Position numbers and translations under genes: made by a program. A stretch of DNA of 64,000 bases, taken from assembly GCA_963422375.2 (NCBI GenBank), contig OY729428.2, forward strand, positions 1,280,001 through 1,344,000, written 5' to 3'. Origin of the DNA: Bryobacterales bacterium (GTDB lineage: Bacteria; Acidobacteriota; Terriglobia; Bryobacterales; UBA6623). The notes beneath the pieces are model-generated. The model ran no database searches and was not told where the DNA came from. It saw only the letters and a program-made list of their open reading frames with translations. Positions within the stretch are counted from its first letter, which is position 1, and every line of letters starts with the position of its first letter. Below are positions 2,954 to 62,185 of this stretch, one piece after another.

Positions 2954-3526
2954 ATGGATCGGATGACCGGCGCGAGCGACCGCGAGCGACTGAAGCGAAT
3001 CCTCCGGACGCATTCGATCAAGCGCGGTGACTTTGTACTCGCTTCCGGCGCTCGGAGCGAAGTCTACGTCGACTGCCGGCTGACCACCCTGCGAGGCGAG
3101 GCGATGCCGCTGGTCGGCAGGCTGATGCTGAAACGCTTCGCCGAGCGCGGCTGGCGGCCTCAGGCCGTAGGCGGTCTGACCATGGGAGCGGACCCGGTCG
3201 CCTGCGCTGTCTGCTTTGCATCCCAAGGAACATCCACTCCCGTCGACGCGTTCGTTGTGCGCAAGACCGAGAAGGGGCACGGACGGAAACGCACGATCGA
3301 AGGCCTGCCGCAAACGGACGGGGTGCGCTGCGTGGTTCTGGACGATGTATGCACCACGGGAGGGTCGACCGCAATGGCGATCAATCGAGCCCGGTCCGCG
3401 GGCATGGTCGTTCTCGGGGCCATCTGCATGGTGGATCGGGAACAGGGCGCGCGCGCCGTGATCGAGGCGGCCGGCTGCCCCCTCGACGCGCTGTTCACGA
3501 TGCGGGAGCTCCTAGCGGGCAAGTGA
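2954..3526 (+). CDS. pyrE: Orotate phosphoribosyltransferase
   Basis: GDFVLASG..S..YVD, VRK..KGHG, PRPP-binding 'VVLDDVCTTGGS'. Confidence 0.93.
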   Translation: MDRMTGASDRERLKRILRTHSIKRGDFVLASGARSEVYVDCRLTTLRGEAMPLVGRLMLKRFAERGWRPQAVGGLTMGADPVACAVCFASQGTSTPVDAFVVRKTEKGHGRKRTIEGLPQTDGVRCVVLDDVCTTGGSTAMAINRARSAGMVVLGAICMVDREQGARAVIEAAGCPLDALFTMRELLAGK

Positions 3527-4100
3527 ACTCGTCAACGAGCGCGGGGATCCATACGTGGAGAGTCGGTCCGCGATTGGATTGAGGCGGGCGCAGCGCTTCG
3601 GAAGCCTGCGCAGGCGTCGCATGTTCCGCCATTCCGCCGAGAAGGCAAGAGCGTTCTAGCGCAGGCTCGCACGGAAGCCTTGCGCCTGTCGACCAAGTTC
3701 ATCGGCACCATGCACCTGCTTGGCCTCCTGCGGGAGGACTGCTGCTCCTCGGCGAGGGGCTTGCTGGCCTGCGGTCTGAGCGTCTCCGCAATTCGCCGAG
3801 ACATCGCCCGCTCGCAGCCTGGACCGGCGTTGTCGCGAAGCCCGTAGCGATAGCAGTTCCACTGATCGGCAGCGATGGAGCGATCCGGCGGCGAGCGGCG
3901 CAGGCCTCGCAGCGACCTGGAAGGCACATTGGGAGGCGGGAACCTCTGCGATGTGATCGCGTCGGACCGCATCGTCCGAACCGACGGCCACGGCACGGGA
4001 GGCCGCAAGGCGCGAGGAACCATGTTGGTATGATGGTCCGCAAGGGACCAGCGCCTGTCGGCCCGTGCTCGCCGCCTGCCGGCCAGAGCGTTTGGATCGC

Positions 4101-46625: not shown

Positions 46626-51740
<5,115 letters not shown>

Positions 51741-51747
51741 GAGCGAC

Positions 51748-53676
51748 ATGGATCCCGCCTACGTCATCAACGCCTTTCCCGAGCGGCGCGAGGCCGTCGC
51801 GTTCGAGCTCGAGCGCCACGGCGGCGCGGACCCGGCCGCGATCCGCTGGATCGGCGCCCCGCGCGGCAGCGCGGCCCGCGGCGAGCCGCTGTTCGCCTGG
51901 CCCCGCTGGCGCGAGGAGCGGACCGGGGCCCTGCTGACGTGGGGCGAGCTGGCCTGCTTCGCGGGGCACCTCGAGGCCTGGCGGCGCATCGCCGCCGGCG
52001 ACGCGGGCGGGGGCTTCGTCTTCGAGGACGACGCCGCGCTGACGGCCCGCCTGGACGGGCTGCCGGCGGAGGCCTTCGCCGGCGCCGGCCTGGTGTACCT
52101 GCACTCGCAGTGGCGCTGCGAGCCCGAGCCGGGCCCGGGCCCCTGGTGCGCGGCGCCGTACACGTGGACGCTGACGGCCTACTGGCTCTCGCGGGAGGCC
52201 GCGGCCGGGCTGGCCGCGGCGGTCGATCCGGACCGGATCGTGCCGGCGGACGAGTACGTGCCGTGGCACTGCGGGACGTGGGACCCGGCCTTCAACCCGC
52301 GCGTGCGCGGCGAGCTGGGGCAGCAGCCGCCGGCGGGGATCGCGGCCCGCTGCCTGCGGGAGCGGCCGGCCGGGCCGTCCGGGCGCTGGGAATCGTCCAC
52401 CGCGGCCGGCCTCTCCCCGCCGGCCTTCGACTTCGAGACGGTCGTCTTCGCCACCGAGCCGGCCCGGGCCGGGGAGGCGCTGGGGGCCCTGCGCGACCTC
52501 GGCTACCGCCCGCGGGTCCTCGGCGCGGGCGAGCCGGGCTGGGACGCCTCGGCGGAGGGCGGCATGCCCAAGCTGCGCTGGCTGCGGGAGGACCTCGCGG
52601 GATCCGACCCGCGGCGGCGCGTCGTGCTGGCGCTGGACGGCTACGACACGCTGCCGCTGGTCCCGGCCGCGGAGTTCTGGGCGCGCTTCGCCGGCATGGA
52701 CTGCCCGGCGGCGATCTCCGGGGAGCGCGGGCTGTGGCCCCCGCGCAACGAGTGGGTGCCCGACCCGGAGCGCGCCTGGCAGGCGTACTGGGAGGACTGG
52801 CCGTGGCGCCGCGAGGGCGTCGCCGAGCGCTACCGGCACGCGTGCAGCGGCGCCTTCGCCGGGCACGCCGAGACGCTGGACTGGGTGCTGCAGGGCCTGC
52901 CGCCCGACGGCGACGACCAGGCCTGGATGCAGGCCGCCGTGCTGGCCAACCCGCGCGCCTGGCGGGTCGACTCGGAGGCCTGGCTGTTCCAGTCGCTGGG
53001 CGGCGAGGAGGGCGCCGTCGAGCGGCGCGACGGCGCGGCCTTCAACGCGGCCACCGGCTGCTACCCGGCGATCCTGCACGCCAACGGCCCGCAGGCCTCG
53101 CTGGACCCGTTCCTGCCGGGCCCGCCGCCGGCGGCGCTCGAGCTGGACCCGGACGCCGGGCGCTGGCTGGAGCTGGCGCCGGGCGTCCTGGGCATGCCGT
53201 TCCTGTCGCGCGCGGCCTGCGCCGGGCTGCTCGAGAGAGCGGAGGCCAGCGACGCCTGGCAGCCGCTGGAGGGGGACGCCGTGCCGGGCGACGAGCTGCG
53301 CCTGCGCGCGCTGGACCCGGCGCTGCGGGCGTGGCTGGACGAGACCCTGCGCGCGGTCGTCGGTCCGGCGGTCGCGGCGCGCTGGCATCCCGCCGCCTGG
53401 AAGGACCCCTGCGACGCCTTCCTGATCCGCTACCGCCCGGACCGCCAGCCGTCGCTGCGGCTGCACGAGGACATCAGCTACCTGTCCTGCTCGATCCGCC
53501 TGCGGCGGGCCTGCGCGGGCGGGCAGCTGCGCTTCCCGCGCCAGAATTTCGACGACGGCGCGGCGGACGACGGCTGGCTGCTGCTGTGGCCGTCGCGGAT
53601 CACGCACCCGCACCGCGTGCTGCCGGTGCGGCGGGGGACGCGCGCCAGCCTGGTGGTGTGGACCCCGGAGAGCTGA
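51748..53676 (+). CDS. Putative trifunctional collagen-modifying enzyme: GT25 (COLGALT-like) + PLOD-type glycosyltransferase + PLOD-type lysyl hydroxylase (2OG-Fe(II))
   Basis: [33 protein letters not shown] (GT25); KLRWL, LALDGYD, SGAFAG, DDQ, LFQSL, ILHANGP (PLOD GT); [25 protein letters not shown] (PLOD LH). Confidence 0.85.
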
Positions 53677-53691: not shown

Positions 53692-54534
53692 GTGCCCGCG
53701 TTTATCCGCTGGCGCGTCGAGGCCGCCGGGGGGACCGACTTCGGCGCGCCCCAGCCCGTGCTGGCGGGCCTGCCGGGCGGCCCCGGACAGCCCGGGCCCA
53801 AGGGCCTGCCCGGCCGGGCCGGACCGCCCGGAGCCCCCGGGCCGACCGGAGTCCCCGGGCGGGCGGGGCCGGCCGGGCTCCCCGGCCTCGAGGGGTTCCC
53901 GGGGCTGCCCGGCGCCGAGGGCGCCGGGGGCTCCCGGGGGGCCCGGGGGCTCCGGGGCCTGGACGGCGCGCCGGGCGCGAAGGGGGTTCCCGGCCGCCGG
54001 GGGGCGCCCGGAGCGCAGGGCGCGCGGGGGGATCCGGGGGGCCCGGGGGCGCAGGGGCGGCAGGGCTCTCCCGGCGCCCGGGGCCCGGCCGGCGCGCGCG
54101 CCGCGCGAGGCGAGGCCGGCAGGGGCGGCGCGGGCGGAGACCCCGGCGCGGGCGGAGACCCCGGCGCCCGGGGCGCCGGCGGCACCCCCGGAGACCGCGG
54201 CAGTCCCGGCTCCCGGGGAGACAGGGGCTCCCTGGGCGACAGGGGCCCCCCGGGCGCCGGAGGAGACGCCGGCGCCCCCGGAGACCGCGGCAGTCCCGGC
54301 TCCGGGGGAGACGCCGGCGCCGCCGGAGGCATCGGTATCACCGGCTCGGACGGGGCCGGCGGGGCCGGCGGCGAGCCCGGGGGCGCCGGAGACCAGCCCA
54401 GCGGGCCGGACGGATGGTCCGGGCCGGCCGGACCGCCGGGAGACCCGGGCGGGAACGTCTACCTGCAGGCTTACGACGACGGGTACGGCGAGGGCTACTT
54501 CGACGGCGAGGACGACTGCTACTCCGAGCAGTGA
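53692..54534 (+). CDS. Collagen-like protein 1 (Pro-in-Y rich, acidic Tyr/Gly C-terminus)
   Basis: Near-continuous Gly-X-Y over most of 280 aa. Confidence 0.88.
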
Positions 54535-54542
54535 CGCGAGCG

Positions 54543-55409
54543 ATGCCGACGACGACGTGGACGACGGAGGCCGCCGCCGTCGAGCGGGACGACCTGCGCG
54601 CGCGGGACTTCGGCCCGGCGCGAGCGGACTCCGCGCTGCACCCGCCCGGGCCGCCCGGGCCGCGCGGGGAGACGGGCCCGCCGGGGCCCCGGGGCCCGGA
54701 CGGGCCTGCCGGGCGCCCGGGGCCGCCCGGGCCGCGCGGGGAGACGGGCCCGCCCGGCGCGTTCGCCCGCGCCGGCGCCCCGGGCGCTCCGGGCCCGGCC
54801 GGCCCCAAGGGCTCCGCGGGCCTGCCCGGACAGCCCGGAACCCCCGGCGCTCCGGGCGCCAAGGGCTGGCCCGGACGGCAGGGCCTGCCGGGAGCCGAGG
54901 GAGCCGGGGGCGCCAAGGGCCGCAAGGGCTACAGGGGCCCCGGGGGCCCCGGGGGCTCCAAGGGCTCCAGGGGCGCCAAGGGCGCCAAGGGCTACAGGGG
55001 CCCCGGGGGCCCCAAGGGCGTCGAGGGCCGGAAGGGCTCCGACGGCGCGCGGGGCGCCAAGGGATACAGGGGCGCCAAGGGGACCAAGGGGACCAAGGGC
55101 TCCAAGGGGACCAAGGGCCTCAGGTCCTTCCCCTTCCGCGGGCCCCGGGGCCCCAAGGGCTACAGGGGCAGCCCCGGCCCGGCCGGCGGGACCGGCCGCG
55201 GGGGCTACGCGGGCGCGCGGGGCCCGCGCGGGGCCCGCGGGCCGGCCGGCGAGCCGGGCCCGATCGGCCAGGTCTACCAGGAGCCGCTGCGCGGCGACCC
55301 CGGGCCGAAGGGGCGCAAGGGCGCCAAGGGCAGGCGCGGCCGGACGCTGGGCTACTCCTCCGGGTACGCGGCCGGGCATGCTGACGGATACGCGGATGCC
55401 GGCTGCTAG
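54543..55409 (+). CDS. Collagen-like protein 2 (GPP/GPR then GxK/KGYR rich)
   Basis: Gly-X-Y runs; ATG 54543 lies within the spurious 51939..55409 frame. Confidence 0.85.
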
Positions 55410-56265
55410 CGGGGCGCTGTGGACGATCGTCGCGCGCGCCCCGGACGCCCGCTCCGTGCGGGCCGGGGGCTTCGGCGCGCCGCGGCTGTACGCCGGCCCC
55501 GTCGGCCCCGTCGGCGAGCGCGGACGCCCGGGACCGCCCGGCGGCGAGGGGCACCCCGGACCGCCCGGACCGCCCGGACCGCGGGGCCCGCGCGGGCCCC
55601 GCGGCCGGCAGCGGCGCGGCGAGCGCGGACGCCCCGGGGCCGTCGGCCAGCGGGGCGCGCCGGGCGACCCGGGACCGGCGGGCCGGGGCGGCGACCCCGC
55701 CCCCGACGGCGCGCAGGGCGACAGGGGCGCCCGGGGCCTGCCCGGGAGGCAGGGCGACCCCGGCCCCGGCGGCGCGCAGGGCGACAGGGGCGCCCGGGGC
55801 CTGCCCGGGAGGCAGGGCGACCCCGGCCTCGGCGGCGCGCAGGGCGACAGGGGCGCCAAGGGCGTCAAGGGCTCCAAGGGGCGCAAGGGCTACAGGGGCG
55901 TCAAGGGCGCCAAGGGCGCCAAGGGCGCCAAGGGCGCCAAGGGCGCCAAGGGCGCCAAGGGCTCCGACGGCGCGCGGGGCGCCAAGGGCCCCAAGGGGTA
56001 CAAGGGCGCCAAGGGGTACAAGGGCGCCAAGGGCGCCAAGGGCGCCAGGGGCCGGAAGGGCCCCAAGGGGTACAAGGGCGCCAAGGGGTACAAGGGGTAT
56101 AAGGGATACAAGGGGAGCAAGGGCGAGGCCGGCTACTATTCCGGCAGCCCGTTCAACCCCGAGGACTACCGGGGGGCGCCCGGGCCGCCCGGCTCCAAGG
56201 GCGCCAAGGGCGCTTCCGGAGGAGGACGCAACTATGGCCGGACGACGCTACCGCATGCTCGCTGA
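55396..56265 (+). CDS. Collagen-like protein 3 (extremely GxK rich)
   Basis: Gly-X-Y runs incl. (GAK)6; start ATG 55396 (MPAASG) parallels the paralog starts, 55378 is the alternative. Confidence 0.85.
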
Positions 56266-56497
56266 CGGCGACCCGGACAAGCTCTCGGCGGAGAGCTTCC
56301 GCGCTTTCGGCGAGCTGGCCGCGCGGCGCGGGAGGGCCCCCGTCACCCTCTGGGTGCTCGAGTCCGACGAGGAGCTCTCCGCCGAGGGCGCCCGCCCGCT
56401 GCGCCCGCTGCCGGACGGCACCTGGGAGGCTCCCGGCGGCCGCCGCTGGCGCCGCTTGACCGGGACCCCCGGCGGCGCGGAGGGCCCCCGCGCGTGA
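56234..56497 (+). CDS. Small hypothetical protein sharing a motif with the tail tip protein
   Basis: GGAGG RBS; RPLRPLPDGTW..PGGRRW resembles [18 protein letters not shown] in 46626..51740. Confidence 0.6.
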   Translation: MAGRRYRMLADGDPDKLSAESFRAFGELAARRGRAPVTLWVLESDEELSAEGARPLRPLPDGTWEAPGGRRWRRLTGTPGGAEGPRA

Positions 56498-57048
56498 ACG
56501 GCCCCTGGAGCCTGGTGCCCGGCGCCGTCGACGACTGCGCGGGCCTGCTGCGCGCGCTGCTCGACAGCACGGAGCTGCGCCCCGGCACCGTCAACGGCGA
56601 CGGCTCCGTGCGCCCCGACATCCGCCGCTCCGCCGTCGGCTGGCCCGACCCCGCCCGCCACGCCGCCGAGCTCGCCCGCGTGCGCCGGGCCGTTCTCGCG
56701 GCCAACCGCGAGCTGTGGGGCTTCGATCTCGACGGCGGCGAGGAGTGGCAGCTCACGCACTACACCCATCTCGACGCGGGCGTCTACGAGCGGCACATGG
56801 ACTGCTCGCTGGAGGGCGGGCGGCCGCGCTGCCGCAAGGTCTCCGTCTGCGTCAACCTGTCCGACCCGCGCGACTACGAGGGCGGCTCGCTGCGGCTGGG
56901 GGCCGTGGGCCAGCCCGACCGCGCGGCGCTGCGCCAGCGCGGCGCCGCGCTGGTCTTCCCCAGCTTCGTCGAGCATCGCGTCACGCCCTTGCTGGCCGGG
57001 GAGCGCTACTCCCTCGTCGCCTGGTTCTCCGGGCCGGCCTGGCGCTAG
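56494..57048 (+). CDS. 2OG-Fe(II) oxygenase (prolyl 4-hydroxylase/PKHD-like)
   Basis: YERHMD (HxD), RKVSVCVNLSDP.DYEGG.L, FPSFVEHRVTP...GERYSLVAW. Confidence 0.9.
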   Translation: MNGPWSLVPGAVDDCAGLLRALLDSTELRPGTVNGDGSVRPDIRRSAVGWPDPARHAAELARVRRAVLAANRELWGFDLDGGEEWQLTHYTHLDAGVYERHMDCSLEGGRPRCRKVSVCVNLSDPRDYEGGSLRLGAVGQPDRAALRQRGAALVFPSFVEHRVTPLLAGERYSLVAWFSGPAWR

Positions 57049-57361: not shown

Positions 57362-57595
57362 ATGGGAACGCGGACGCTGCACTTCCTGGCAGCCTTCGAT
57401 CAGGTCTGCGACAGGGAGCTGCTTCCCATGAGGCAGGCCGAGGAATGTGGCGCCCGGAGAACAATCGACGAGGCGGCGGCAGTGGCGCTCGGTATCGCTC
57501 CCGATGCAATCGCGGACTGGAGAAGGCGTTTGGCGTTGGAGCCGACGATCACCAATGTGCGCGTCAGGGAACCCGGGAGCGAAGAGGCATCCTGA
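57362..57595 (+). pseudogene. C-terminal fragment of a larger gene (possibly an RM/DNA methylase protein)
   Basis: Protein-like tail LAAFDQVCDRELLP...IDEAAAVALG...WRRRLALEPTITN with no credible N-terminus; GC shift here. Confidence 0.35.
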
Positions 57596-57641
57596 GCATG
57601 GCCCTGAACGCGAAGCACACGGATTTCCAAGGGGCTTGAGC

Positions 57642-59738
57642 ATGTCTGTCGAATACTCGATGAGAATTTCCCGGCTTACCGTCGACAAGTTGGGGGTCAA
57701 GCTCTACGACAAGGTGTCCGCCGTCATCGCCGAACTCATCGCGAACGCCTACGATGCCGATGCCACACATGTGACGGTTCGAGCGCCGATGGGGCAGTTT
57801 CTGGCGACTCGAGCCGGAGGCACCGTGGCGGACAAGGGCTTCAGCATCGAAGTCGACGACGACGGCATCGGCATGACGCCTCAGCAGGTACAGGACTTCT
57901 TTCTCGTCGTCGGTTCCGAGCGGCGGAACGACACCAGCCGAGGCGACCGTTCGCCCCGCTACAGACGTAAGGTCATGGGCCGCAAGGGCGTCGGAAAGCT
58001 GGCACCCTTCGGTATCTGCAAGACCATCGAGGTGATCAGTGCCGGCGGAGATTTCATCGACGGCGGGGGTGCGACCCCGGGCGCCACGGGCTACCTCACG
58101 TCCCACATCGTCCTCTACTACGATGGCATCACGGCGCTCGATGATGAGCCCGACGAACGCTACAAGCCGGTCGTGGGCGACCGCGATGAGTCTTACTCCC
58201 CGAAGTCGGGGACTCGAATCATCCTGAAGGACTTCAGCCACCGGAGGGTCCCCGAGCTCAATGTCCTCGGCCGCCAGCTCGCCCAACGCTTTGGTATCCC
58301 GTCGACGGACTGGAATGTCCAGCTTCTGGACAACACGGAATCCACTCCGTCACCGGTGACGGTCGGCACCTTCGACATTCAGACGATGCCGAACACGAAG
58401 CTCACGTTTGGGCAGAATGGAACTGTACTCAACCCCGACGGTGCTCCTGCGATGGACCAGTCGGCCGGATTCGAACATGAGGGCATATTTCGCCCCATCA
58501 CAGGCTGGATGGCGTACTCGAAGGCTCCCTACAAGGACGAGCTCATGGCTGGGGTGAGAATCTACTGCCGCGGCAAGATCGCCGCCCAGACATCCATCTT
58601 CAACCAGCGGGCCGGCTTTACCGGCGAGCACAACATCCGCTCCTATCTCGTCGGCGAGCTCCACGCCGACTGGCTCGACGAAGAAGAAGACCTCATCCAA
58701 ACCGATCGACGGGACATCCTCTGGTCGGACGAACTCGCTGCCGCCTTCCAAGCTTGGGGCCAGAGAATCGTCAAGAAGATCGGCACCCTGTCGCGGGAGC
58801 CCATGCGGAGAGCGACTTTGGATCTGTTCCTCGAGACGGGCGATGTCGACGCTCGCATCCAGAACGCCTATCCGACCGAAGAGCAACAAGACATTCGCAA
58901 AAGCGCGAAAGAGGTCGCCGAATCCTTCGGTCGCACGATCAGCCGAGGGGATGTCGAAGATGCCAGCGTCGTGAACGAACTGGTCGATCTGAGCATCACC
59001 CTCGCGCCCCACATCACGCTCAACGCCAAGATGAAGGAAGCGGTCGCCAGCGCCGACACGCCGCTCTCTGTCCTAGCTTCGTTCCTGCGTACGGCGCGAT
59101 TGGCCGAACTGTCCTCGTTCGGCAGAATCGCGGAAGACCGCCTCAAGGTCATCGACCGCCTCGAAATTCTGAAGGACGCCGACGACACCGACGAGAACGA
59201 TCTTCAGCGGCTGATCACTGACGCTCCCTGGTTGATCAACCCTGAATGGGCGCCGGTGACCGAAAACCAAACCTTCGCGAGTTTGCGCCGGGAGTTCGAG
59301 AAGTACTACAACGACAAGACCGGCCAGTCCATTTCGTTGTCCGATTTCCAGAAGACGGGCAAACGGCCGGACTTCGTCTTGTCCAATCAGGAAGGCACGG
59401 TGCAGATCATCGAGATCAAGAAGCCGGGCCATAGACTGTCGAACCCGGAAATGGACAGGATCGTCACCTACTACGAGAACATGGAGGCGTTCCTTGACGA
59501 CCCTGGGCATACCGCGTTTCGCATGCACTTGGCCGACTTCCATGTCACCGTGGTCTGCGACAGGCTCGGTTTGAGCGGTTCTCCGCGCGCCGCCTTTGAT
59601 GGTTATCGTGACAAAGGCAGACTGACGCGCATGGACTGGACGGCGTTTCTCCTGAAATCGGAACAAGTGCACCAGGATTTTCTCAGCGAGGCCCAGCGTC
59701 AGCGTGCCGCCGGACCAGCGGTTCCCGACGGCCATTGA
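57642..59738 (+). CDS. GHKL/MORC-type ATPase with C-terminal PD-(D/E)xK nuclease domain
   Basis: ELIANAYDADA, DDGIGM, GRKGVGKLA, GTRI; C-terminal RPDFVL...IIEIKKP. Confidence 0.85.
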   Translation: MSVEYSMRISRLTVDKLGVKLYDKVSAVIAELIANAYDADATHVTVRAPMGQFLATRAGGTVADKGFSIEVDDDGIGMTPQQVQDFFLVVGSERRNDTSRGDRSPRYRRKVMGRKGVGKLAPFGICKTIEVISAGGDFIDGGGATPGATGYLTSHIVLYYDGITALDDEPDERYKPVVGDRDESYSPKSGTRIILKDFSHRRVPELNVLGRQLAQRFGIPSTDWNVQLLDNTESTPSPVTVGTFDIQTMPNTKLTFGQNGTVLNPDGAPAMDQSAGFEHEGIFRPITGWMAYSKAPYKDELMAGVRIYCRGKIAAQTSIFNQRAGFTGEHNIRSYLVGELHADWLDEEEDLIQTDRRDILWSDELAAAFQAWGQRIVKKIGTLSREPMRRATLDLFLETGDVDARIQNAYPTEEQQDIRKSAKEVAESFGRTISRGDVEDASVVNELVDLSITLAPHITLNAKMKEAVASADTPLSVLASFLRTARLAELSSFGRIAEDRLKVIDRLEILKDADDTDENDLQRLITDAPWLINPEWAPVTENQTFASLRREFEKYYNDKTGQSISLSDFQKTGKRPDFVLSNQEGTVQIIEIKKPGHRLSNPEMDRIVTYYENMEAFLDDPGHTAFRMHLADFHVTVVCDRLGLSGSPRAAFDGYRDKGRLTRMDWTAFLLKSEQVHQDFLSEAQRQRAAGPAVPDGH

Positions 59739-59743
59739 CGAAC

Positions 59744-60838
59744 ATGACTCCGACGGCGATCGACATCTTTGCCGGCGCTGGGGGCCTGACGGTTGGCCTC
59801 AAACGCGCGGGCTTCCGCGTTGTCGCTGCGGTGGAGATCGAGGCCCATTCATTCGCTACCTACAAGGCGAACCATCCTGAGGTGCGGTGCCTGAAGCAGG
59901 ACATCGCCACGGTCTCCGGCGACGCTCTTTTCGAGCTCGCGGGAACAGACCGAATTGATCTACTGGCAGGTTGCCCGCCGTGCCAAGGCTTCACCAGCCT
60001 GACTGCAAAGTACAAGGGTAGGGAAGATCCTCGTAACGCACTCGTTCTCGAGATGGCCCGCCTCGCCGAGGAAATGCGGCCGCGGGCGATCATGATGGAG
60101 AATGTCCCCGGATTGGCACGAAAGGGCGGATCGCTATACGGTCGAATGCAAGCGCGACTCCAGGCGCTCGATTACCGACTGACAGATAGGATACTGCAAG
60201 TCGCTGATTACGGTGTCCCGCAGTTTCGGCGACGATTTGTCCTACTCGGTGGTCAAGGCTTCGAGATCGCCCTCCCGGACGCGACTCATTCCGGTACGCC
60301 GACTGGTAACCTTACGCGTTGGCGCACGGTAGGTGACACGATCAAGAACATGCCTGAACCCCTCACCTTGGCGGAGGCCAAGGCAAGGGGAGAGGTCGAG
60401 CGGTCCGACTGGCATGTCGTTCGAAAACTGTCGCGCGAGAACATCGAACGCATTAAGGCGGCGAAGCCAGGTGAGACATGGGCGCACATTCCCGAGCATC
60501 TCCGGCCGGCCTGTCACCGTGACGGCTATGTCGGATTCACCAATGTATACGGGAGGATGGTTTGGGACCGACCGTCACCTACGATTACCGGCGGCTGCAC
60601 CACTCTAAGCAAGGGCCGCTTTGGTCATCCGAATGCCGACCGGACGATCTCCGTACGGGAGGCCGCACTTCTCCAGACCTTTCCCCGAGACTACCGCCTT
60701 GACACACCGTTCATGGATTATGTGTGTAACATGATAGGCAACGCATTGCCGTGCGACTTTGCGGAAGCCCTCTCGCGGCGATGTCTAGACGAGCTTGGCA
60801 AACAGGCGAAAAGCATGTCCCCGACATTCTCCAGCTAG
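59744..60838 (+). CDS. DNA (cytosine-5)-methyltransferase
   Basis: DIFAGAGG, GCPPCQGF, MENVPG, YGVPQFRRR, REAALLQTFP, IGNA. Confidence 0.96.
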   Translation: MTPTAIDIFAGAGGLTVGLKRAGFRVVAAVEIEAHSFATYKANHPEVRCLKQDIATVSGDALFELAGTDRIDLLAGCPPCQGFTSLTAKYKGREDPRNALVLEMARLAEEMRPRAIMMENVPGLARKGGSLYGRMQARLQALDYRLTDRILQVADYGVPQFRRRFVLLGGQGFEIALPDATHSGTPTGNLTRWRTVGDTIKNMPEPLTLAEAKARGEVERSDWHVVRKLSRENIERIKAAKPGETWAHIPEHLRPACHRDGYVGFTNVYGRMVWDRPSPTITGGCTTLSKGRFGHPNADRTISVREAALLQTFPRDYRLDTPFMDYVCNMIGNALPCDFAEALSRRCLDELGKQAKSMSPTFSS

Positions 60839-60913
60839 CGTAGGGGAGCCACCCGAAATTGCCTAAGGTCGGCGTGTTCGAGAGCGAATCCTTCGCCAAT
60901 CCAACGGCTACGA

Positions 60914-61369
60914 TCAATTGATACATCGGCTAGTAGGCGTCTCGTTGGCAGCACCACCCGAGCCGAACAATTGGTCAGAGTGTCGGGGTACGGTCACAAC
61001 CAATCTAGGTCCGGGCGGTCGGGAGGCTTCCGGCTTGCCGCCGACCTTGCCGAACATGACGTAGATCGCGGAGACGGACGGATCGCGCATGGACTCGAAC
61101 ACGCTGTTGCCCACCGCGTTCCATGTGTCGCGCTTGCTGTACTTGACCTCGACGCCGAAGCCGTTGACGCGGATGTCGGGAAAGGCGTGGCGGTGGTAGG
61201 TCGGTTCGACCGTCGCGTCGAGATCGGTGGCCGCGTTCTGCAACGCGGCCAGCACGCCCTGCTCGAACTGGTCCGGGCCGTGGCAGAGCGTGCTGGTACG
61301 GAGATTGAGCGTCAGGAACTGCGCTGCGCGGTCCAGTAGCGCCTCGAACTCAGTCGGCGTCAACAACAA
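60914..61369 (-). pseudogene. Truncated PD-(D/E)xK restriction endonuclease
   Basis: HAFPDI....FGVEVK..D.W..VGNSVFE; sequence turns non-protein-like after KVGGKPEA (about 61025). Confidence 0.6.
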
Positions 61370-61528: not shown

Positions 61529-62185
61529 CTACAACGCCCTGCCCGCCCAGCGCACCTCGCCGACCACGCGGCTCTCCCGCGGCAGCGGCAGGGGCTCGAA
61601 GGCGCGGTTCTCGCTCTCCAGCAGCCACGCGCCGCCCGCGCCGCCCGCCCGCCGGGCCCGCTTGACCACCAGCCCGTCCGCGCCGCGCACGACGAAGACC
61701 CTCCCGCTGGCCAGCGCCCGGCGCTCGTGATCGACCAGGATCCAGCAGCCGTCCTCCAGCAGCGGCTCCATCGAGTCGCCGATCACCTCGATCACGCTGC
61801 AGCGGCCCGCGGCCACGCGGTGCCGCCGCAGCCAGCGGCGCGGGAAGGCCACGTGGCCGATGACCGGCTCCGACTCGGCCTCCGCGCCGGCGCCCGCCGC
61901 CGCGCGGACGTCGCGCAGGGGCACCAGGTCGGCCTCGCGCTCGCCGAGCAGGGCGGGCGGGAGCAAGCCCGCGGGCGCGGGGTCGTCGGTGAGGCCGGCG
62001 AGGTAGTCGAGCGAGACGCCGAGCGTCCGGGCGGCCTCGACCAAGCCGTCGAATCGCAATGTGCGGTGGCCGGCTTCAACCCTCGAAATCATCGCTTGGT
62101 CGTAGCGATCTCCGAGGGCCGCGGCCAATTCGACTTGCTTGAGACCAGCACGTCGCCTAGCCGCCGCCAGCCGCGGACCCAGCAT
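61529..62185 (-). CDS. CI-like repressor (XRE HTH + S24 autopeptidase)
   Basis: LKQVELA..ISRVEAG HTH, SLDYLAG, AAGAG cleavage site, GDSMEP Ser, VVKR Lys. Confidence 0.93.
   Translation of the reverse strand: MLGPRLAAARRRAGLKQVELAAALGDRYDQAMISRVEAGHRTLRFDGLVEAARTLGVSLDYLAGLTDDPAPAGLLPPALLGEREADLVPLRDVRAAAGAGAEAESEPVIGHVAFPRRWLRRHRVAAGRCSVIEVIGDSMEPLLEDGCWILVDHERRALASGRVFVVRGADGLVVKRARRAGGAGGAWLLESENRAFEPLPLPRESRVVGEVRWAGRAL

Follow-up and report, generated by a model that had tools for sequence, protein, structure and literature searches.

Lysine at the Y position of tailed-phage collagens occurs together with a predicted lysine-modifying fusion enzyme

Background and Summary

The window analysed here is a stretch of 64,000 nucleotides from a Bryobacterales bacterium (assembly GCA_963422375.2, contig OY729428.2, positions 1,280,001 to 1,344,000). 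Within a prophage it holds three short collagen genes in a row, called chains A, B and C below, which are flanked by two predicted enzymes. The first is a fusion protein of 642 amino acids that resembles the animal enzymes acting on collagen lysines. The second is a small oxygenase of 184 amino acids, likely a prolyl hydroxylase. All lysines in the three chains sit at the Y position of the Gly-X-Y triplets, and such lysines (Y-Lys, with Y-Pro, X-Pro and so on named in the same way) co-occur with the fusion enzyme in every comparison made.

Given collagens with Y-Lys and a fused animal-type enzyme next to them, it is probable that the phage adds hydroxyl groups and sugars to the collagen it encodes. 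That the three chains are fibre chains of a temperate siphovirus, and substrates of the two flanking enzymes, is proposed with fair confidence. Enzyme activity, the chains as substrates, the modified lysine and proline sites and the identity of the sugars are predicted from sequence.

Collagen that is hydroxylated and glycosylated counts as a hallmark of animals, and mimivirus is the known exception. Bacteria and their viruses are said to lack both (PMC8968730, PMC3368898), and bacteria and viruses are also stated to lack prolyl hydroxylases (PMC3368898); what is cited here from these two papers, and from PMC9546862, refers to excerpts of them. A literature search found no report of virus-encoded collagen modification in tailed phages. 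New here are the setting (a temperate siphovirus from soil), the three-domain fusion and the three-chain collagen. Also new are an apparent quantitative link between Y-Lys and the lysyl hydroxylase, and an apparent link between Y-Pro and the oxygenase in this lineage.

The three collagen chains

The three genes are on the forward strand. Chain A (53692..54534) has 280 amino acids, a net charge of -5 and much Y-Pro: its 75 triplets hold 26 prolines at Y, 9 at X, and only 2 lysines at Y. Chain B (54543..55409) has 288 amino acids, a net charge of +32 and 73 triplets, with 19 Y-Lys, 16 Y-Pro and four copies of the motif KGYR; it ends in GYADAGC. Chain C (55378..56265) has 295 amino acids, a net charge of +44, no cysteine, and 76 triplets of which 28 have Y-Lys. 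From comparison with orthologues, its true start may be the second methionine, at 55396. In translation, the triplets form three runs in chain A and four in each of the other two.

All three are collagens by the usual measures. They score 81-109 bits against PF01391 (cut-off 27.2), and glycine recurs at every third position over long runs. The DNA is 80-84% G+C, with a G+C of 0.90-0.95 at third codon positions. An out-of-frame artefact of high-G+C DNA was considered and rejected, since orthologues at loci of 60-63% G+C share the termini of these chains.

The preliminary description of this DNA had claimed that lysine and proline are placed at Y, the position that the hydroxylases target. For lysine this is entirely so: 49 of 49 lysines are at Y (2, 19 and 28 in chains A, B and C) and none at X. 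For proline the picture is mixed. The Y-Pro level is high in all three chains, at 35%, 22% and 20% of triplets, but an excess of Y over X is confined to chain A (26 versus 9 prolines, against 16 versus 22 in chain B and 15 versus 13 in chain C). An earlier count for the first 37 triplets of chain A, 16 prolines at Y versus 5 at X, was reproduced exactly (two-sided binomial p about 0.027). Substrate sites of the animal type, meaning lysine in X-Lys-Gly and frequent Y-Pro, are thus present in these chains.

The choice of lysine is in itself unusual. In eight non-collagen proteins of the prophage, the fraction K/(K+R) is 0.108 (56 lysines, 461 arginines); it is 0.39 in chain B and 0.46 in chain C. 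Aspartate and glutamate at X range over 5-17% of triplets in the three chains, and are low in chain B (5%) and chain C (13%), which means that the usual KGE and KGD pairing is mostly absent. Tyrosine stands at X five times in chain B and eight times in chain C. What sets the three chains apart is lysine over arginine, scarce acidic partners, and Y-Lys that co-varies with the enzyme.

The fusion enzyme

The gene at 51748..53676 (forward strand) lies directly upstream of chain A. Its product has three predicted domains: a GT25 glycosyltransferase like that of COLGALT1 (PF01755), a PLOD-type glycosyltransferase (PF25342), and a lysyl-hydroxylase domain of the 2-oxoglutarate (2OG)/Fe(II) kind (PF13640). 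When 14 homologues are combined in a profile, positions 10-207 match COLGALT1, 235-435 the glycosyltransferase domain of LH3 and 463-618 the lysyl-hydroxylase domain of LH3. The same profile also matches mimivirus R699 (9dyt) and the lysyl-hydroxylase domain of L230 (6ax6).

Each domain has the motifs expected of it. The GT25 domain scores 29.4 bits (cut-off 24), its profile matches COLGALT1 324-537 with an E-value of 8e-24, and the acidic metal motif EDD (in FEDD) aligns identically with that of COLGALT1. The PLOD-type domain scores 45.6 bits (cut-off 27), and its VDGYD aligns with VDSYD of LH3, a DxxD motif of which D297 is invariant and D300 nearly so among the 14 homologues. The lysyl-hydroxylase domain aligns with LH3 546-711 and has the HxD...H pattern with the 2OG-binding arginine; H573, D575, H620/H622 and R632 are invariant in the same set.

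The accessory domain of LH3 is absent: only LH3 34-239 and 546-711 are matched, with fewer than 30 profile positions between them. The enzyme is predicted to work like LH3, with a different architecture.

Homologues of the enzyme are rare. A search of genome contigs with the single sequence matched nothing, and it was the alignment of 14 sequences that found the loci. Of 401 genomes sampled from the phylum, 2 encode the full-length enzyme and 121 have collagen repeats. Two loci (loci carry labels such as L001) hold decaying modules. In L002 a stop divides the enzyme, the small collagens are lost and the oxygenase is reduced to 58 amino acids; in L003 the enzyme is frameshifted.

Y-Lys with and without the enzyme

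The enzyme-linked set consists of 17 loci from metagenome-assembled genomes of Acidobacteriota (16 with a substantial match to the enzyme), one viral contig and the window. Leaving out the near-duplicates L007, L009-L011, L015 and L016, the decayed L002 and the fragment L017 gives 11 representative loci. As controls, one collagen locus, found by a Pfam family search, was taken from each of 60 genomes of the same phylum that lack the enzyme. Of these, 55 were kept; in L019, L023, L034, L049 and L063 no frame reached 20 triplets. L020, L039 and L058, which are doubtful as genes, were kept in the counts.

Pooled, the enzyme-linked loci have Y-Lys in 669 of 3190 triplets, and 33 lysines at X. The controls have Y-Lys in 130 of 4056 triplets; 36 of the 55 loci have none, and 6 reach at least 0.08. 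The difference between the 11 representative loci and the 55 controls is clear (Mann-Whitney p = 4e-7). The same bias was also looked for in enzyme-free collagens matched for G+C, and it was not found there: the 39 controls whose collagen DNA reaches 68% G+C or more have medians of 0 for Y-Lys and 0.079 for Y-Pro.

Phage collagens with and without the enzyme, a comparison that the preliminary description had proposed, can be set side by side in viral contigs, which gives a cleaner test than the controls do. The marine form of the small oxygenase recovered 80 such contigs; in 53 of them there is a collagen that reaches 20 triplets. Y-Lys is 0.12-0.31 in all 46 that carry the fusion enzyme (16 clusters; three of the enzymes are cut by the contig end). 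In all 7 that do not (4 clusters), it is 0-0.01, and the collagens are (Gly-Pro-Thr)-like with X-Pro of 0.65-0.67. In five of these 7, the contig extends for 3.2 kb or more to the side on which the enzyme gene would be expected.

Isolated phages also show the pairing. Protein gp60 of Roseobacter phage CRP-6 (L138) has 99 triplets with 26 Y-Lys (26%), and gp222 of Synechococcus phage S-CAM9 (L139) has 59 triplets with 22 (37%). Both are tail-fibre genes that lie just upstream of an enzyme homologue. These homologues are full-length, about 25% identical, and annotated as 'hypothetical' or '2OG-Fe(II) oxygenase'. Synechococcus phage S-PRM1 likewise has the enzyme next to a collagen fibre with Y-Lys.

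The genes around the enzyme form a recurring order: distal tail protein, p326, a J-like protein with collagen, the enzyme, small collagens (usually three), an open reading frame of 87 amino acids (orf87) and the oxygenase. This order recurs over 17 genome loci and one viral contig, with members sometimes missing. Among 18 loci with a J-like gene, all 14 with the enzyme have collagen. In the 4 without it, no set of collagen runs reaches 12 triplets, and no enzyme-free collagen relatives were found there. Among these prophage relatives, collagen and enzymes are gained or lost together.

The GxK block and the KGYR motif

A part of chain C, at 55852..56121 on the forward strand, consists of 30 GxK-type triplets. 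The residues at Y are lysine 26 times, arginine three times and aspartate once, so that an earlier count of 26 in 30 is exact. All 26 lysine codons are AAG, in DNA of about 80% G+C. The block is a 9-bp tandem array (55841-56087) with 27.4 copies, 77% matches and a consensus that translates as G-A-K. The 30 triplets are for this reason not independent events.

The array varies in length between the three copies of the prophage in this genome. Chain C of the window differs from that of the other two by two additional GAK units, a two-triplet indel in the array, and three substitutions. Chains A and B are identical across all three copies. Chain B has a second 9-bp tandem array, at 54890-55118. 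One control locus, L020 (contig C41 of the unrelated genome G051, 3434-3784), contains a 9-bp repeat, (GYK)n/(GPK)n/(GHK)n, like the GYK part of chain C; its frame is of doubtful coding, and the genome is without the enzyme.

The recurrence of KGYR in chains B and C, noted earlier, is real: there are four in chain B and one in chain C, which also has five KGYK. In a triplet shuffle, at least four KGYR in chain B has p = 0.0035, and seven KG[YFWH][RK] in chain C has p = 0.0004, both values being inflated by internal duplication. The motif had been taken to recall KGHR, the glycosylated lysine site of fibrillar collagen, which also serves in helical cross-links made with lysyl oxidase. The two motifs are not the same, KGYR and KGYK having tyrosine and not histidine. 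A weaker form of the idea, Y-Lys before an aromatic residue at X, holds: over the 11 representative loci, 33 of 58 aromatic X residues are preceded by Y-Lys (base rate 0.20), with statistics that homology between loci inflates. Leaving out the window, it is 20 of 40, with an odds ratio of 4.2. Overall, the interpretation of KGYR is weak.

The small oxygenase and Y-Pro

The oxygenase gene lies at 56494..57048 on the forward strand. Its product matches PF13640 with 47.3 bits, and has the HxD...H motif and arginine of the double-stranded beta-helix; H101, D103, H161 and R171 do not vary among 14 sequences. The structure model (pLDDT 88) is closest to the prolyl hydroxylase of P. putida (PPHD, 4iw3, TM-score 0.71), then to the collagen prolyl hydroxylase of virus PBCV-1 (5c5t, 0.66), then to PHD2 and an algal prolyl 4-hydroxylase. 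By sequence it is nearest to hydroxylases of the PKHD/PiuC type. It is likely a prolyl hydroxylase, judging from this predicted fold. As a single domain of 184 amino acids, it does not have the architecture of animal collagen prolyl 4-hydroxylases, with their peptide-substrate-binding domain and protein disulfide isomerase beta subunit.

Between chain C and the oxygenase lies orf87 (56234..56497, forward strand), which matches no Pfam or PHROG family. It is found by tblastn in the same place in L001, L003, L004, L006, L007, L012 and L014, with a short piece in L002, and could be an assembly factor.

That bacterial collagens favour proline at X, as had been stated earlier, is borne out by the controls: over 55 loci, the medians are 0.38 for X-Pro and 0.07 for Y-Pro, and only 3 loci have more Y-Pro than X-Pro. 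Part of PMC8968730 agrees. Table 4 of PMC3368898 gives Y-Pro as 7.4% in E. coli prophage collagens, 9.3% in other viral collagens, 3.7% in those of Gram-positive bacteria, and 33.5% in human fibrillar collagens. The three chains of the window are far over the bacterial and viral 4-9%, and near the human value.

In eight representative Acidobacteriota lineages with the oxygenase, Y-Pro is 0.18-0.31. It is 0.09, 0.02 and 0.02 in L003, L005 and L012, which lack the oxygenase; Y-Lys there is still 0.15-0.22. No oxygenase match was found in the genomes of these three, and one is present in the genome of the relative L004. Most safely put, the oxygenase goes together with proline-containing collagen, and Y-Pro appears to depend on the oxygenase in this lineage.

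Seven marine viral contigs (L215, L220, L227, L231, L236, L239 and L240) carry the small oxygenase, and no fusion enzyme, next to (Gly-Pro-Thr)n collagens with X-Pro of about 0.66 and no lysine, a hint that X-Pro is what the marine oxygenase hydroxylates.

Three matched chains

By orthology the small collagens form three groups, which have a common N-terminal motif and distinct C-termini. The end of chain A is rich in tyrosine and aspartate and has one cysteine, that of chain B reads ...GY.DAGC, and cysteine is absent from chain C. All three paralogues are conserved in the window and in L001, L004, L005, L006, L008, L013 and L018. Within a locus, the numbers of triplets are nearly equal: 42/41/41, 57/58/57, 86/85/85 and 70/69/62. 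Chain A tends to have the most Y-Pro and chain C the most Y-Lys (in the window, L006 and L008).

Three matched chains with a C-terminal cysteine in only two of them are the expected signature of an A-B-C heterotrimer with an A-B disulfide, and this organisation points to one. Heterotrimeric collagen is not known from prokaryotes according to part of the review PMC8968730.

Weighing the explanations

Several observations count against modification as the reason for these patterns. The controls are mostly probable cell-surface collagens and not phage ones, and three of them, as said, are doubtful as genes. GDK-type Y-Lys also turns up in two enzyme-free controls, L025 and L052. Collagens in general favour lysine or arginine at Y. 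The excerpts of PMC3368898 give Y-Arg/Lys as 31% in E. coli prophage collagens without hydroxylases, with GPK (15%) as the commonest triplet, and Table 4 of that paper has 38% for other viral collagens. Y-Lys alone is therefore not diagnostic. The GxK block was expanded by tandem amplification, which does not require selection on each triplet.

The proline side has its own difficulties. The link between Y-Pro and the oxygenase amounts to two loss events, on a quick tree. The J-protein collagen of L002 has Y-Pro of 0.42, despite an oxygenase remnant of just 58 amino acids. The marine relatives of the oxygenase adjoin collagens in which Y-Pro is 0-0.05 (pooled, 6 of 1327 triplets) and proline is found only at X (X-Pro 0.10-0.67). 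As these homologues adjoin collagens with X-Pro only, Y-specificity of the oxygenase is not established.

The preliminary description had the substrates co-evolve with the neighbouring enzymes. For lysine this is supported, by the domains, the conserved residues and the covariation of Y-Lys. For proline it is half supported, in this lineage only, the marine relatives having X-Pro.

Of the alternatives, the one that survives best is that Y-Lys sets the register of the chains. Axial pairing of lysine with aspartate is a feature of designed heterotrimeric collagen peptides, and here Y-Lys of chains B and C would pair with X-Asp of chain A. The conserved termini of the three groups, their near-equal triplet numbers, the cysteines in A and B only, and the opposite charges (-5 with 11 X-Asp in chain A, versus +32 and +44) all suit this idea. 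However, there are 47 Y-Lys in B and C versus 13 X-Asp/Glu in A, so pairing cannot explain the density of lysine, and the gaps between Gly-X-Y runs coincide only partly between the chains. Register coding is a tentative explanation, and it need not exclude modification.

Less probable is that ordinary collagen physics and adhesion suffice. Y-Lys would then serve helix electrostatics and a polycationic fibre on an anionic surface, and the enzymes would modify few residues, the J-like collagen only, or some other target. The 31-38% Y-Arg/Lys in phage and viral collagens without hydroxylases, the net charges of chains B and C, the amplified 9-bp repeat and the GDK-type lysines of L025 and L052 can all be read this way. 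The idea does not account for the choice of lysine, because arginine is the default basic residue of this genome and carries equal charge. Nor does it fit with Y-Lys being absent from 36 of 55 same-phylum controls and all 7 enzyme-free viral collagens, and present in all 46 with the enzyme. The X-Asp/Glu needed for KGE/KGD pairing is also mostly lacking in chains B and C, where phage and viral collagens have about 35% (PMC3368898, Table 4).

Finally, it is very improbable that Y-Pro is merely composition, with high G+C driving Y to the CCN codons of proline and leaving it uninformative on hydroxylation, which the 80-84% G+C of the chains and a weak rise of control Y-Pro with G+C (Spearman 0.25, p = 0.06) might suggest: the 39 high-G+C controls have a median X-Pro of 0.40 beside their low Y-Pro, six controls at 0.80-0.86 G+C (L054, L036, L030, L028, L075 and L073) reach only 0.02-0.11, relatives with collagen DNA of 69-78% G+C keep 0.18-0.31, and L005, at 76% G+C and without the oxygenase, has 0.02, so that G+C alone is largely refuted as the cause.

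Known systems

Mimivirus is known to have L230 (a lysyl hydroxylase with glucosyltransferase), R699 (a galactosylhydroxylysyl glucosyltransferase), L593 (a prolyl hydroxylase) and collagens such as L71 (excerpts of PMC9546862). It is alike in that a virus encodes both collagens and homologues of the animal enzymes that modify lysine and proline, and L230 and R699 match the profile of the fusion enzyme. The differences are that here the virus is a tailed temperate bacteriophage, that the GT25, PLOD-type and lysyl-hydroxylase domains are fused in 642 amino acids, that the genes lie within a tail-fibre module, and that the collagen consists of three short paralogous chains.

With human LH3/PLOD3 and COLGALT1/GLT25D1 (6fxk, 8zgc), the fusion enzyme shares three implied activities (X-Lys-Gly hydroxylation, addition of galactose, addition of glucose) and aligned HxD...H plus arginine, DxxD and EDD motifs. 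Identity is only at a level detectable with profiles. LH3 from about 240 to 545 has no counterpart in the phage enzyme, and the COLGALT-like domain, a separate partner protein in humans, is fused here. The substrates are alike, as in human fibrillar collagen lysine also stands at Y, and a Y-Pro of about 20-35% compares with the human value already cited from PMC3368898. The phage side has no endoplasmic reticulum or signal peptide. Lysyl oxidase (PF01186) was not found in the genome; the same search matched no control genome either, and is hence uninformative.

The collagen-like proteins of E. coli O157 prophages (EPclPs) are likewise tail-fibre proteins with lysine or arginine at Y. In the excerpts of PMC3368898 they have X-Pro of 48%, Y-Pro of 7.4%, X-Asp/Glu of 36%, no aromatic residues and no hydroxylases. 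The three chains described here are unlike them in their Y-Pro of 20-35%, X-Asp/Glu of 5-17%, tyrosine at X, and adjacent enzymes.

The oxygenase shares with the prolyl 4-hydroxylase of B. anthracis and vCPH of PBCV-1 its small size, its single 2OG-oxygenase domain and its prolyl-hydroxylase fold (5c5t, as above). It differs in that its closest fold, 4iw3, is the EF-Tu prolyl hydroxylase of P. putida, which is not a collagen enzyme. According to part of PMC8968730, X-Pro and Y-Pro are both substrates of the B. anthracis enzyme for hydroxylation, and this fits the mixed X/Y picture found here.

Prophage setting

The window from 27.8 to 61.4 kb is a complete HK97-type temperate siphovirus prophage (27816-61367, about 33.5 kb). 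Its genes include an HNH endonuclease, large terminase, portal, protease, major head protein, adaptors, tape measure, distal tail protein and the J-like fibre; a CI/S24-type repressor is at 61529-62185. The prophage has a G+C of 75-84%, versus 67% for the genome.

The J-like protein is a central tail fibre or host-specificity protein of 1704 amino acids (46626..51740, forward strand; phrog_5616, phrog_31 (central tail fiber J), and PF01391 in the collagen runs at its C-terminus). In runs of at least 3 it has 103 triplets, with proline 26, threonine 25 and lysine 14 times at Y, and a single lysine at X.

Three copies of the prophage are present in the genome, at about 99% identity. Two of them span contig ends, and contigs C1 and C3 each start and end within the prophage. 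This suggests either that the phage was recently active or that the repeat broke up the assembly. The genome has 72 collagen-repeat matches, every one of them inside the three copies, so the host has no other collagen that could serve as an internal control.

At the end of the prophage lies a cargo of lower G+C (about 60%, 57447-61369). It has a 763 amino acid HATPase_c_3 protein (phrog_6203), a C-5 cytosine DNA methyltransferase (59735-60838) and, on the opposite strand, an open reading frame of 151 amino acids without a family. The cargo resembles a restriction-modification or defence island.

Proposed mechanism

Modification would take place during late expression, in the cytoplasm, while the chains are still unfolded. 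The C-terminal domain of the 642 amino acid enzyme would hydroxylate lysines in X-Lys-Gly, the GT25 domain would galactosylate the resulting hydroxylysines, and the PLOD-type domain would add glucose. This would be the animal route to glucosyl-galactosyl-hydroxylysine in one polypeptide. The small oxygenase would hydroxylate prolines, which would make Y-Pro worthwhile. The chains would then fold to a triple helix on the tail tip.

For the modified fibre, the favoured role would be in adsorption to the host surface or in protecting the fibre. The GxK block may become a glycan brush, as the preliminary description had it. The most extensive version, a tailed phage with the full animal-style route (hydroxyproline plus glucosyl-galactosyl-hydroxylysine) on an A-B-C heterotrimer closed by an A-B disulfide, its GxK array a cationic disaccharide bottlebrush for meeting the host, is a rather doubtful proposition.

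Significance

The pairing of Y-Lys with the enzyme spans prophages of soil Acidobacteriota, marine viral contigs, cultured cyanophages and a roseophage. As Y-Lys is present where the enzyme is adjacent and missing where it is not, tailed phages probably finish their fibre collagens chemically.

If true, this could be tested directly in the culturable phages S-CAM9, S-PRM1 and CRP-6. It would also provide a rule for predicting modification sites from sequence, and compact enzymes, expressed in bacteria, for recombinant collagen that is both hydroxylated and glycosylated. And the origin of the animal pathway would become a question.

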